A stretch of 64,000 nt of DNA from Octopus vulgaris (taxonomy: Eukaryota): the NCBI GenBank assembly GCA_951406725.2, contig CATOCA020000001.1:5022001-5086000 (forward strand), read 5' to 3'. Position numbers and translations under genes: made by a program. The notes below the pieces were generated by a model, which had not been told where the DNA came from, did no database searches, and saw nothing but the letters and a program-made list of their open reading frames with translations. How positions within the stretch are numbered: position 1 is the stretch's first letter; every line of letters begins with the position of its first letter. Positions 6,901 through 30,761 of the stretch are shown here, in pieces.

Positions 6901-9900
6901 AAATGAATACCAACGTTCGTTCACAGATAAAGAGAAAGATTATTTATGCATCTCTCTAATGAAAGAGAGTAATTTCTATGGATCACCCAAGATCTGCGAA
7001 TGCTCCAAAATGCAAGGATCAGCATATAAAAATACTAAGACCTACTGACATCAAATTGAGACCAACAGTTGCTGGACCTTGAGCCCCAACACAACAACAG
7101 AGCCATCTTTTGGATATACTCCTCAAACCGTTATGCCCATTAATGGCCAGCTATACCCGAGACGATATGGATTTCATCAAACACATTCCACCCACTGTCC
7201 CAGAACGTACTATACTTAAAAGATTTGACTAATCTTTGTACAAATACATCACATTTTGGGCCTGGAAGCAATCAAACACTGGGTAGAAAAACATAGCGGA
7301 CGGATGGACGAACGCTTCAAAACGCATTTCCAAAGACACACGCCGGGAACTAGAAGACAACACCTTTAGATTCGATAATAAACTGTATCGACAGATAAAA
7401 GGACACCACTACGGGGACGAGGTTCACACACATACTCGCACCCAGAGGTAGATATACATATGTGTGTATATTTCTGAGTGTATATGTGTGTATGTGCTTA
7501 TATGTGCATACATGTGCGTGTATGTGTGTGGATGTGTGTGTTGGTACATAGAGAGGCGAAGCGGATACTCGAGGTTGTGCAAGTCAAGTAGGAAATAAAC
7601 ATGAAACGGCTGCCACATTAAGATATTCTTCTCCTCCTGCTTCTTCTTCTTCTTCTTCTTCTTCTTCTTCTTCTTCTTCTTCTTCTTCTTCTTCTTCGTT
7701 ATCTTTCTTCTTCTTTTTCTTCTTCGTTATCTTTCTTCTTTTTCTTCCTTTCATTCTGAAGTCACAGTGTTTGATATCGTATCACAAATATTTTCCATAT
7801 AATCTATTTTACTCTTTCTTTACTGCTATAGAGATCTGAGATGGAACAACATTTCAACCATCAAAGAAGGAGCATTCACGGGGCTTTCGAATTTAAAATA
7901 CTTGTAAGTTCGTTCAGTTTCTTGATACTATTTTCCGAAAGTAATAATTGATGCTGATATATAAGCTCACAAATGTATAAAATTTCAGACTGCGCCAAAC
8001 AAAATCAATTCAAATTTGTAGAATGAACACGATTTAGGAAGATACAAAGAGAATATGAGAGAGCGAGACAATGTGAAAGAAAGAGAGAGAATTTGAGAGA
8101 GAAAGTGAAATAATAGGAAAAATATAATGTTCCTTTATTGTAGTTGCTTTGTTTCAATTCGCATCTCAATAACTCATTTTTGTTCCCCAAATTTCAATGA
8201 TTTTGATATGAATTTGTATTAGAAATGGTAACGTTTGTGAGTTTACATGTTTGCATCAAATATTTTTAGCTGAAGTATATGTGTATGTTCATATATAAGT
8301 GTAGTTCTGTGTGAAATGTGACTATATTATTCCTTTATTTTATATTTTGCATCCTCCTCCATTTCTTATTTCAATATTCTCCTTCGTGTTTCGATATTAT
8401 CATTCAACTTCGAATTTTGTCATTCACTTCACGTTATTTATGTAATAGAGCAACTGAAGTGGAAGCGGAAAATATATATTCGAATAATATAGTCACATAC
8501 ATTCTATCTGTAAACCTGAAATACTTACTGTACTTGTAAGCTGGAATATTTGGCCTGATACAATTAAACTGCTGATATATTTCTTGTAAGCGTGTGTTTT
8601 CTAATATTCTTGTGACAATGAAGCGATATGAAATAAATAATCTCTCTCACCATATTTCCACAAGGGTGAGTGGGAATATGTGTGATGTGAGTGTGCATAC
8701 CGCATTCCGTCGTTGATACTATGAATATAAGAATGCGTATGAGTGCATTTGAATATGTTGATTTCTGATTCCGTATATTCCCTGATTTTTCAGCCATGTC
8801 TTCTCGCCCAAAATTTATCGATCTATCCTTGAATTATTTCCTGATATTTTGAGAACATTTTCAGTTTCGTCTTGAACGCCATGATTTTCAATGTATCTTC
8901 TTCTTCTTCTTCTTCTTCTTCTTCTTCTTCTTCTTCTTCTTCTTCTTCTTCTTCTTCTTCTTCTTTCTCCTTCTCCTTCTTCTTCTTCTTCTTCTTCTTC
9001 TTCTTCTCCTTCTTTTTCTACTTCTTCTTCTTTTTCTTCTTCTTCCTCTCCTCCTGCTCCTTCTCCTCCTTCGTTTTCTTCTCTTCTTTTTCTTCTTTTC
9101 CTTCTTCTTCTTCTCTTCTTTTCTTTTTCTTCTACTTCTACTCCTCCTACTCCTCTTCCTCTTCTAATTTCTTTCTTCTTCTTATTCTTCATTTTCTTCT
9201 TTAAATTCTCTTCCCCCTCCACTCCGCCCCTCCTCCTCATTTTTCTTCTTGTAATTCTCCTCCTCCCCTCCTCTCCTGCTCTTTTTTCTTCTTCTTCTTC
9301 TTCTTCTTCTTCTTCTTCTTCTTCTTCTTCTTCTCCTTCTCCTTATTCTTTTTCTTCTTCTCTCGCTTCAACATATTTCTTCTTCTTCTTCTCCTACATC
9401 CTCTTCTACTTTCAATTTTTTCAACTACTCCTCCTCCTCCTTCTTCCTCCTTCTCCTCCTCCTTCTTCTTCTTATTCTTCTTTTTTTCTTCTACTCCTAC
9501 TTTTCCCCTTCATTACTTCCTCCTCCTTTTTCCTCTTCATTCTGCTACTTCTTTTTTCCTCTTCTTTCTTTCCTCCCAATCCTCTCCGCCCCTCCTCCTC
9601 CTTTTTTTCTTGTTATTCTCCTCCTCCCCCTCCTCTCCCGCTTCTTTTTCTTCTTCTTCTGCGTCTTCTTCTAATTCTTCTTCTTCTTTTCCTCCTCCTC
9701 CTTTTTCTTTTCTTCTCATTTTTCTACTCTTTTTTCTTCTCATACTTCTTCTCCTTCTTCTTCTTCTTCTCTACTTTATACTTCTTCTTCTCCTCCTCTT
9801 CCTCTTTCTTCTTCTTATATTCTTTTTTTGTTATTCTCATCCTCCTTCTTCTTCTTTTTCATCTTCTCCTACTTATTCTTCCCCATCATTCTCCTCCTCC

Positions 9901-28800: not shown

Positions 28801-30761
28801 TAGTAAAAATCCCGTTATAAAAATCAACCAAGAAAAAAGCAGTGTGGCTTTTAGCGACGTAGAATTGGTAACAATTAAATCCACGTCGAAGTGTTCTAAT
28901 GCTTCTGATATTTGTTTGCCAATGATTTCCAATAAAGTTTGATGAGCTATCCTTGTTCTTCATTGTCTTCTGAAGTGTTCAAATTGTAAAGTCAATTTAT
29001 AGGTACCCAGTATATATCTTCTACCAAAAGGTGACCATTGTTTTATGAACTTTGAATAGGATTCTGAAAGTTATGTACTAGCCTGATGATGGTCAATGTT
29101 ATTGCAATAATTATTATTTTATTGTTTTGAAAACCTTTTTTATCATTACACTGCTACTGGAGTATGTACTTTTACTATTCCTTGTTTCAGTTATCAGATT
29201 GCGGCCATGCTGGAGTACTACCTTCAAGCGTTTACTCGAACAAATCATCCTTAGTACTGAATTTTTAAAATCTGGCACTTAATCAGTCGGATACCTTTTG
29301 AGGAATCACTAAGTTACGGGGGACATAAACAAACCAATATTGGTTATCAAACACTCGCATATATATATATGTATATATATACGAAGGGAATCCACACAGT
29401 TTCCTGCAGCAAATTTACTCACAACGCTTAGTTGACCCAAGGTTATAGTAAATGTTATTTGTCCAAGGTGCCACACAGTTGGACTAAAGAATCCATGGAT
29501 GTGAGAAGTAATTTTCCTGCCACAGAACCTTGCCTATATGGAGGATGATATTTCTACCATAGATGAGAATGTTGACTAAAACCCATATTGTGCACATAAG
29601 AAAGTCTCCTTATTATTTTTTTATTTTTGTATTTTATTCCCTTCCATCTTTTGCTGTTTTGTTATCAGGTTTTCTTTTAGGATAATTAAGTTAGATTGAA
29701 GGAACCTATTCTTGTTCAAACAACACTTCCCACAGAACTATAAAGAGAAATAAACAATTGTAGTGTGTAATATCAGCATTTACCCTGTTAGTGTTGACTG
29801 AAACGCAATTTAGTATTGAACAGGAGTAAACATATTTATTTATTTTTACTTATTTTAAAGTGTGTAATATTTGTCTCTTTTTCAGATATTTGAACATCAA
29901 CCCAATAGAAAAATATGAAGATGGCGCTTTCTTATTCCTTCCCAGCATAGCTACAATGTAAGCAAACAAGTTCTTTTTGTTATAGGAAAATAAAAATAAT
30001 AAAATGAGGTCATCAAATTCTCAATTCCTCGTTAAATGTTGTTGGTAATAAACAACAATGATTTGATTTAAATTTCAGTGGATCAACATGATTTCCGAGC
30101 ACTGTGTTTTATTATCGAAAAGTTTATGTTCAAATATCAGAAGGTTGATTTGATCTAGTTTACCCCATGTTTATAAATACACATAATTCACTGGAGTCGA
30201 GAGAGTGGCCTACATACCAACCTACATGCACACATATATAAAGATTCCTGTGTGTATATGCGTATGTGCATATATAAGCATACACACACACATATATATA
30301 TTGTTATTACTTATTATATCCTTATGACAACGGAGTTATCAGAAGGAATAAGATCCACAAAAATTCCATTCAAATATTTCTGATGACTGCTGTATTTGCC
30401 TCTGTATTTCTACCACGAAACCATTTGGTAATTTGGTAATCAAGGGGCTAAAATATTCTTTCTACGATAAGCACAAGGCCTGCAATTTTGTGGCTGGGGG
30501 TTGTCGATTACATCCACCCTAGTGCTCGGCTGGTACTTAATTCATCGACCCCAAAAAGATGAAAGGCAAAATCGTCCTCGAAATTTTGAACTCAGAACAT
30601 GAAAACAGAACACCCTGTAACTGTTGGGTCGATTAATACGCAGTATTACTGTATCGCAAGATTTTGTGATTTGCCAATCTGACAGAAACGGGATGGTTCA
30701 ATATGTATGATATCTCCATTCTTCTGTGTTAATATATATATATATATATTTACACACACAA

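Follow-up and report, generated by a model that had tools for sequence, protein, structure and literature searches.

The stretch of Octopus vulgaris DNA analysed here, hereafter the window (64,000 nucleotides), carries on its plus strand a gene whose first exon (3758..3968; start codon at 3778) encodes a hydrophobic leader and a putative LRRNT cap, matched by Pfam LRRNT at E=6e-4, under the curated cut-off. This exon ends in phase 2 and is followed by seven LRR cassettes, located at 7832..7903 (cassette 1, type A), 10141..10211 (cassette 2), 13065..13136 (cassette 3), 16543..16614 (cassette 4), 19316..19387 (cassette 5), 21996..22065 (cassette 6), and 24714..24785 (cassette 7), with a cassette-to-cassette spacing of 2.3-3.5 kb, and by a final LRR exon that is distinct from the cassettes (29886..29957; 72 nt, phase 2). 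Beyond the ~1-kb conserved flank of each cassette lies a degenerate (TTC)n pyrimidine tract of 1.2-2.4 kb, the seven tracts (8890..27350) occupying 8890-10060, 11190-12990, 14120-16470, 17600-19240, 20370-21920, 23050-24640, and 25770-27350. As an earlier note on this DNA had proposed, the LRR exons are symmetric, with phase-2 introns from the first exon to the final LRR exon, and each 72-nt exon encodes one LRR. The note's claim of identical cassette splice signals was also reproduced, a 22-nt acceptor and a 16-nt donor string each occurring seven times with 0 mismatches (0 expected, 100 shuffles). This identity is not specific to the splice sites; it belongs to the near-identity of the whole flank, whose downstream 960 nt differ by 2.5%, and therefore requires no splicing explanation. 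The split codon, said to be always TTA, is so for all cassettes (TT at the end, A at the start), but the final LRR exon ends in AT. In the structure model of a relative (P0004), each predicted beta-strand runs from the residue that closes one exon, through the split Leu, to the residue that opens the following exon, in line with the note's proposal that the strand spans the junction.

The description of seven intact 72-nt cassettes did not survive inspection, since the assembled lengths are 72, 71, 72, 72, 72, 70, and 72 nt, and cassettes 2 and 6 shift into stops. Intact 72-nt cassettes can be skipped in frame as claimed, but the subsets open as assembled number 2^5 rather than 2^7 because of these two frameshifts. 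Joint restoration of the frame by the 71- and 70-nt cassettes was considered and rejected because each runs into stops. Together with the constitutive LRRCT exon (33680..33835; 156 nt as assembled, 2 nt short of intact paralogs), the gene lacks five bases across three exons. These indels are probably consensus errors of the assembly, judging from the comparison of copies: 9 of 11 indel positions, scored by eye in six shifted cassettes, fall no further than 1 nt from a site at which the copies are polymorphic (43% of positions; p=0.011), and in one paralog cassette both variant letters stand next to each other. A near-identical 72-nt copy of cassette 6 occurs in a paralog. The LRRCT exon starts in frame in contigs labelled as RNA, which may derive from paralogs; the label of the four runs concerned is a guess ("RNA?"), none being recorded as RNA, and one run (X1) covers an intron as DNA would.

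The ectodomain and its receptor family

Downstream on the same strand, a Cys-rich domain encoded by two exons (38735-38826 and 40805-40988) is predicted from structure-model alignment to adopt the Ly6/uPAR three-finger fold. Residues 93-177 of the model of a relative (P0006) aligned with five LU-domain chains at middling scores (Z 7.0-8.0), the best being Prod1 (Z 8.0, rmsd 2.6, 71/71 aligned), followed by GPIHBP1, Lypd6b, PSCA, and Lynx2 (Z 7.0-7.3). The first model, of P0004, did not resolve this domain, and its fold searches returned LRR proteins only; a Pfam scan of six window pieces gave nothing useful and no match for the three-finger domain, and an ESM Atlas search with the Cys-rich domain gave no usable match. 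Three further exons (41936-42018, 43074-43126, and 45036-45190, the last exon found for the window copy) encode a putative ferredoxin-fold, SEA-like domain, which is supported by a Pfam SEA match in a distant relative (E=0.013). A tRNA gene search found none.

Paralogs carry all window exons in the same order, and the exon at ~40805-40988 shares 72-100% identity with 32 of 32 matches, 31 of them labelled Octopus. The ectodomain is homologous to that of an Octopus ADGRG6-like adhesion-GPCR expansion with at least 15 close copies, and both GPS and 7tm_2 were found in close paralogs, in P0032 by Pfam and in the gene at 2.95 Mb of contig C31 exon by exon. On this sequence comparison, the window gene is assigned an LRR, predicted three-finger, and SEA-like ectodomain of this expanded family. 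The accessible text of PMC6408891 describes an octopus-specific adhesion-GPCR expansion, expressed in the axial nerve cord, suckers, skin, and gills, whose group 3 resembles the present family in having GPS and 7TM, LRRs in some members (5 of 22), and a Death domain in one. Because relative P0071 combines LRR, GPS, 7tm_2, and Death domains, the present family is probably that group, as far as this text describes it; splicing, exon cassettes, the three-finger domain, and copies without 7TM go unmentioned there. According to PMC11431876, the skin mucus of octopus contains an "adhesion GPCR G6", which may not be the present family.

For the window copy, no HRM, GAIN, or 7TM exon was found in the next ~79 kb downstream, a stretch that crosses an assembly gap, and therefore this copy may be truncated, secreted, misassembled, or a pseudogene. 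No 7TM turned up either in the examined stretches of those paralogs that are closest to it in the SEA exon. A copy that is decaying into a pseudogene, or that is a fragment produced by misassembly, with real frameshifts, would fit the five missing bases, the location on a 50-kb piece bounded on each side by an N gap, the end of colinearity with paralogs at ~46.1 kb, and a 7-nt LRRCT deletion in one paralog that resembles a true lesion. We regard this as quite unlikely, since the indels are concentrated in few genes and at polymorphic sites, and the five 72-nt cassettes and the other exons are free of in-frame stops; the family-wide pattern of variation is unaffected in either case.

Variation in cassettes and flanks

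Within the window, exons differ by 16% and downstream flanks by 2.5% (~1-kb flanks being ~97.5% identical), with 22 of 72 exon columns variable against 64 of 960 in the downstream flank (p=9e-9). Our cassette survey covered 11 of the 15 closest genes, some in part only, and 65 of 70 type-A and 8 of 10 type-B cassettes were 72 nt long. Across the 56 units with an intact exon and a full 900-nt flank, pi was 0.149 in the exon and 0.032 in the flank, whose top 72-nt window reached 0.084. The codon counts were based on 63 in-frame type-A cassettes (60 distinct) from the 11 genes, leaving out 7 of 70 (6 frameshifted and 1 in-frame exon missed by the motif filter). Codons 1, 3, 4, and 23 each accommodate 10-12 residues, while core LRR positions vary little or not at all. 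By pairwise counts rather than a codon model, pN/pS was 1.63 on six predicted concave positions versus 0.22 elsewhere, and 78% of the entropy is concentrated in these six (10 of 8008 position sets). Whole-exon pN/pS was 0.76, because synonymous exon sites are also diverse, with a pi of 0.17 at four-fold sites, far above introns. The strand parts observed comprise 16 strand ends and 44 strand starts.

Several observations point to exchange between copies. The four-gamete test was failed by 142 of 190 site pairs in cassette exons, exon and flank distances were uncorrelated (Mantel r 0.11, p 0.12), and cassette distances within genes were about the same as those between genes. Window cassette 3 has the same sequence as a paralog cassette on another chromosome-scale contig (C30). 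Among close paralogs, cassette number (2-12 per array) and order vary, alongside the concave-face diversification seen in pairwise counts. Two O. sinensis gene models contain the window's first-exon peptide exactly and 0 of its five intact cassette peptides.

The strongest signal is one of diversification at the DNA level, a reading that was absent from the earlier note's proposals. The LRR array is built from tandem ~2.7-kb units, each consisting of one exon plus its flank, and we consider it probable that unequal crossing-over and gene conversion in the germline have diversified its predicted binding face, with selection for new concave-face residues, as in brown-algal ROCO genes. Such exchange between cassettes would likely renew the predicted ligand-binding face, and may be promoted by the homogenised flanks and (TTC)n tracts; since the exons are symmetric and phase 2, any cassette gain or loss would keep the frame. 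Selection likely favours new residues on the concave face, and the product may bind a fast-changing ligand, either microbial or related to self/non-self. Several points limit this germline reading. Part of the exon diversity excess could stem from linkage that has preserved old variants, or from constrained flanks. The copies behind the pairwise counts recombine and are not independent of one another, and the counts do not constitute a formal selection test; moreover, the accessible text of PMC6408891, which reports tandem clusters and branch-level positive selection, found no selected sites in the expansion. A single assembly, itself with visible errors, supplied all the copies, and haplotypes may be among the "paralogs". 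Finally, annotated skipping isoforms exist in paralogs.

Cassette skipping and exon choice

The anatomy permits in-frame skipping, and, as the earlier note had argued, each new join would make a new strand, with 36 possible junctions versus 8 constitutive ones. A candidate lead for such skipping, predicted by folding, is a 34-bp intronic inverted repeat on the plus strand (arms 7943-7976 and 8231-8264, at +40..+73 and +328..+361 after the donor), which is repeated after each of the seven cassettes and has a stem energy of -33 kcal/mol, better than 100 of 100 shuffles (0 as good). Splicing might be imagined as a main diversifier that yields many cassette combinations, each stem arm pairing inside its own unit or with the matching arm in a different one, so that the intervening exons are looped out; we consider this unlikely. 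In its favour, besides the symmetric phase-2 exons, the stem occurs in 79 of 98 units examined, and in close copies its paired bases diverge by 1.2% versus 2.6% for the rest. The genome holds 148 candidates for the stem-bounded stretch versus 156 for the exon unit, and therefore this stretch is not an abundant dispersed element. Against a role in skipping, the aligned table shows no compensatory stem pairs (one possible case by eye), the stem is lost in many diverged units and found in neither type-B cassettes nor intron 1, and local pairing across the 254-nt loop should outdo pairing over at least 2.7 kb.

Annotated isoforms are similarly two-sided. Whole LRRs, for the most part close to the N-terminus, distinguish the thirteen isoforms of one O. 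sinensis gene from each other, as they do the seven observed for another, and automated models on contig C14 of genome G000 read a-c-d, b-c-d, b-d, and b. The a-to-c skip is not accounted for by ends that the exons have in common (a 3-nt suffix and a 1-nt prefix), whereas the b-d and b-only models can arise from the 24-49 nt identical 3' ends of three cassettes. In isoforms P0050 and P0103, half-exons are fused at an internal AAG|GT. Such fusions and such identical ends are both typical of mis-mapped reads, and some annotated paralog isoforms look like mapping artefacts. Haplotypes with fewer cassettes would yield the same models, and in O. bimaculoides a single LRR set is common to three isoforms of an older paralog. 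RNA-labelled contigs connect family copies of the final LRR exon with the end of a type-A cassette and with the LRRCT exon. Many deposited models use an upstream LRRCT acceptor at 33629, of which these contigs gave no sign; the three that end at 29957 join the acceptor at 33680.

Dscam1 choice depends on a docking/selector mechanism. A mutually exclusive choice of this type, with one array cassette per transcript, would suit the tandem duplicated exons with identical splice sites and the cassette pairs that never occur together in annotated isoforms (group A; a and b on C14), yet we consider it highly improbable. Every protein model with a full N-terminus, automated as these models are, has several cassettes in series, so the deposited models do not show one exon per mRNA, and the introns exceed 2 kb, and therefore impose no steric exclusion between cassettes. 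The earlier note's label "Dscam-like" finds no support in these long introns, in the splice sites, which appear comparable in strength to constitutive ones, or in the docking-site search, which found no conserved docking site with per-exon selectors. Docking-type complements were matched by 24 of 40 shuffles in intron 1 and by 14 of 100 in the 1.3 kb before the final exon, and compact docking duplexes by 10 of 25. A loose docking duplex (-29.0 vs -23.1 +/- 1.4, 12 shuffles) needed large internal loops and was gone in the compact test; a candidate 34-nt docking site (29723-29756) had a changed core in 6 of 8 copies; and pairing of a GA-rich block after the donor with the TTC tract (-59.7) was no better than shuffles (-64.6 +/- 3.0). 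Under germline diversification, most cassettes are likely included by splicing, with skipping as a possible second layer.

Comparison with known diversified receptors

The closest parallels in exon organization were sought among published systems, each compared here within the accessible portions of its sources. The brown-algal ROCO arrays (PMC3341825, PMC11378527), which belong to cytoplasmic LRR-ROC-COR GTPases, share with the octopus genes one LRR per 72-nt phase-2 exon, repeat numbers that vary between close paralogs, and annotated splice variants whose LRR content differs; a further likeness is the presence of LRR exons on the opposite strand. Positive selection acts on concave-face sites there, while the octopus concave-face excess is one of pairwise counts. 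The octopus array is an extracellular one, in the ectodomain of an animal adhesion GPCR, and differs in having an intron inside the binding strand and ~1-kb flanks homogenised across genes with long (TTC)n tracts between them. No ROC-COR Pfam family was found in the 6 proteins scanned, which are not ROCO members. Arthropod Dscam1, with mutually exclusive splicing (PMC13428168), likewise uses tandem duplicated exons for a variable recognition surface; because octopus cassettes are used in series, skipping would alter domain length, unlike in Dscam1. Sea-urchin Sp185/333 genes (PMC3091723) are similar in their microsatellite-bounded segmental duplicates with homogenised flanks and in neighbours being no nearer to each other than distant copies, although whole genes are duplicated there and the octopus unit is one exon plus flank.

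Agnathan VLRs (PMC13428168, in its accessible part) share 24-residue LRR modules, variable concave faces, and conversion-like mixing, but are assembled somatically from an incomplete gene, whereas the octopus gene is complete, with LRRNT, cassettes, and LRRCT present as exons in order. Mosaic exons and long homologous flanks would allow VLR-like somatic gene conversion to add diversity within the animal, and the half-exon chimeric isoforms imply RNA with recombinant cassettes absent at that place in the assembly; given the complete germline gene, and since these data are equally accounted for by recombination of alleles and paralogs in the germline, we hold the chance of somatic exchange to be very small. 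A bolder proposal combines genomic conversion across at least 15 genes with per-cell skipping by competing intronic stems, giving an anticipatory octopus repertoire on LRR/three-finger adhesion GPCRs and 7TM-less copies. We rate it as rather unlikely; if true, molluscs would have an equivalent of VLR or Dscam diversity, serving immunity or self-recognition in arm and skin.

Literature searches, mostly of open-access sources, returned no description of exon-level cassette diversification in the octopus adhesion-GPCR family, nor of a hypervariable recognition receptor in cephalopods. For arrays of this kind, automated isoform lists and frameshifts are not trustworthy. A known but unexamined octopus GPCR expansion bears the marks of a hypervariable receptor, with exon-sized binding modules swapped between genes and variation on the predicted binding face, and the array offers a way into the study of recognition diversity in octopus, as well as candidates for ligand screens.

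Exon layout and domains of the window gene and its relatives

Mapping of relatives placed an LRRNT exon at 3758-3968, seven LRR cassettes between it and the final LRR exon (29886-29957), an LRRCT exon at 33680-33835, a Cys-rich domain in two exons (38735-38826 and 40805-40988), and three further exons ending at 45190. Many deposited models use an LRRCT acceptor 51 nt upstream (33629-33679), which lengthens the product by 17 residues; the acceptor in the RNA-labelled contigs examined is 33680. In structure models of relatives, the LRR part forms a typical extracellular solenoid, and the split Leu sits in the middle of every strand. 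The Cys-rich domain of such models aligns with three-finger chains of the Ly6/uPAR type (Prod1, Z 8.0, 71/71 residues), and the last domain adopts a ferredoxin-like, SEA-like fold. Exon 40805-40987, used as a query, gave 32 matches, 31 of them labelled Octopus and many named adhesion GPCR G6-like or slit-like, and full-length relatives contain HRM-like, GPS and 7tm_2 domains. The window gene is probably a member of the octopus adhesion-GPCR expansion of PMC6408891; the available part of that account makes no mention of exon cassettes.

Colinearity of the window copy with its paralogs ends near 46.1 kb, and no further exons were found in ~79 kb downstream, a search that crossed the N gap at 51069. 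Two close paralogs finish with a second SEA-like repeat and have no 7TM in the stretches fetched, and another has a 7TM and lacks HRM exons; the family therefore varies at the domain level too. In the deposited models P0010, P0015, P0021 and P0022, and in two genes of G000 contig C31 (5.36 Mb and 3.79 Mb), the second SEA-like repeat leads into a short tail resembling the receptor C-terminus, without GAIN or 7TM. Close paralogs of this kind are possibly secreted or decoy forms. In the O. sinensis models P0002 and P0004 the three-finger domain is present in two or three copies, which reflects either duplication of exon blocks at a second level or fusion of models.

Cassette units and their diversity across the family

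The earlier note (7832..29957) had described seven cassettes with identical splice signals, a common phase and a shared split codon, and had taken 72 nt as the length of the intact ones. The signals and phase are borne out, as seven copies of the acceptor string and seven of the donor string are present with 0 mismatches, against none by chance, the first exon leaves coding phase 2, and each cassette begins with A and ends with TT. In order, the lengths are 72, 71, 72, 72, 72, 70 and 72 nt; those of 71 and 70 nt reach stops. The exons lie 2.3-3.5 kb apart, and each is flanked by conserved sequence, ~100 nt upstream and ~1 kb downstream, the latter followed by a degenerate (TTC)n tract of 1.2-2.4 kb that completes the unit. 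Mean differences between window units are 16% in exons versus 5% in the upstream 125 nt and 2.5% in the downstream flanks, so the identical splice signals are part of a unit-wide identity.

The first exon yielded 15 matches of at least 93% among 40 scored in total, and the cassette unit yielded 156 candidates, 40 of them scored. From 11 genes, 70 window-like (type-A) cassettes and 10 of a second class (type B) were extracted, in arrays of 2-12; the exact acceptor string recurs in 55/70 type-A cassettes and the exact donor string in 59/70. Among the 63 in-frame type-A cassettes, on which codon counts were made, codons 1, 3, 4 and 23 each take 10-12 residues, and the LRR core varies little or not at all. 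Residues on the concave face of an LRR generally face the ligand. This orientation is supported by the available part of PMC11378527. At six concave positions pN/pS was 1.63, versus 0.22 elsewhere (the five in-frame cassettes of the window gave 2.2 and 0.20), although a simple selection reading of these ratios is weakened by diversity at four-fold sites within the exon (0.17) and by the non-independence of the copies, all from one assembly.

Diversity was 0.149 in the exon versus 0.032 in the flanks, 142/190 site pairs failed the four-gamete test, and exon distance and flank distance were uncorrelated. Cassettes of the same gene are barely closer to each other than those of different genes. 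Cassette 3 of the window has an exactly matching cassette on contig C30, and two O. sinensis gene models share exactly the window's first-exon peptide and 0/5 of its intact cassettes. We consider it likely that symmetric exons lying in long homologous flanks have been shuffled through unequal crossing-over and conversion, both inside single genes and from one gene to another, whereby cassettes would be gained, lost or partly overwritten and selection would retain new concave-face residues. The (TTC)n tracts possibly assist this exchange, by analogy with the system in the available part of PMC3091723; that cassettes are exchanged somatically is very hard to credit. As far as the available parts of PMC3341825 and PMC11378527 describe them, brown-algal ROCO arrays work likewise, but the window gene is not a ROCO, and no published account of the cassette array was found in the literature searched.

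Frameshifted exons and assembly context

Frameshifts affect six type-A cassettes, which belong to four genes, and three of those genes have shifted constitutive exons too. Most indels are single-base run changes, 9/11 coincide with or adjoin positions that are variable between copies (p=0.011), and one cassette holds both variant letters consecutively. Contigs of run X19, guessed to be RNA, contain an in-frame LRRCT start consisting of the window's sequence plus one base. Judged on sequence, consensus error is the likely cause of the frameshifts, those of cassettes 2 and 6 included; that the window copy is a pseudogene or misassembly is improbable, and this question is separate from the mechanism.

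The piece that carries the window gene measures exactly 50,000 bases (1069-51068) and sits between two 100-N gaps, the first of which cuts an upstream paralog just short of its last SEA-like exon. The deposited models P0003 and P0111 join that paralog to the window gene's exons, and the two may be haplotypes placed in tandem. Elsewhere (G000:C5:141880930-141885168, stretches L086-L087), four opposite-strand LRR cassettes are arranged head to head with an array on the plus strand. Three of the four match their plus-strand counterparts exactly, and the remaining one shows a few base differences. They arose either by a recent inverted duplication, which would parallel the LRR exons on the opposite strand in Ectocarpus ROCO genes, or as a fold-back artefact of assembly next to an N gap. 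Tandem ~6.1-kb units, ~96-97% identical, occupy 57800-64000 and extend at least 60 kb beyond the window (L001-L006); they contain no tRNA, and their 282-codon open frame (61019-61867) has no Pfam match. A 225-codon open frame (50223-50900, minus strand), with no fitting Pfam match, and a broken frame (6700-7440, plus strand) resemble remnants of retroelements.

Splicing as a possible source of cassette diversity

Four putative RNA runs were aligned to 29480-30330. In X17, X18 and X19, depth over the 72-nt exon reached hundreds to thousands, versus at most 12 in the flanks; the loose ends at 29886 were type-A cassette ends (four X17 contigs, agreement 0.87, and one X18 contig) and those at 29957 were the LRRCT start. 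The family is therefore spliced as modelled; the contigs are not assignable to the window copy and say nothing on skipping.

Deposited automated models include isoforms that differ by whole LRRs, 13 for one O. sinensis gene and 7 seen for another. On G000 contig C14, four isoform patterns (a-c-d, b-c-d, b-d and b) draw on four cassettes that are all intact genomic exons; shared exon ends could explain the other joins but not that of a to c. Two isoforms fuse half-cassettes at an internal AAG|GT lacking a pyrimidine tract, which points to an aligner splitting reads of putative recombinant alleles or paralogs, and haplotypes with fewer cassettes would likewise mimic skipping. Cassette skipping, itself putative, is made more probable by these observations; as a main source of diversity it is unlikely.

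The earlier note had also envisaged Dscam-like splicing. A 34-bp inverted repeat follows each type-A donor (+40..+73 with +328..+361; -33 kcal/mol), scoring 23.7 versus 13.7 +/- 1.5, with 0/100 shuffles reaching its score; the predicted fold of the region (z -2.0 over its whole length) contains the stem. Both arms occur in 79/98 units. In close copies the stem has diverged about half as much as the adjoining sequence, but in distant copies the difference is small (10.5% versus 13.2%). The similarity of the units could allow arms of different units to pair, with the intervening exons looped out. No clear covariation was seen in the stem. Type-B units, intron 1 and older paralogs lack it, and it may be what remains of a transposon end. 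In the last intron, 80 nt (28171-28250) are identical in 8/8 copies compared, against an intron average of 96-98%; no compact pairing with a cassette flank was found for them. No Dscam-type docking site passed controls, and Dscam-type exclusion among cassettes appears most improbable. Because an intron interrupts the strand, a new strand would result from every new pairing of neighbours, be it in DNA or in RNA.
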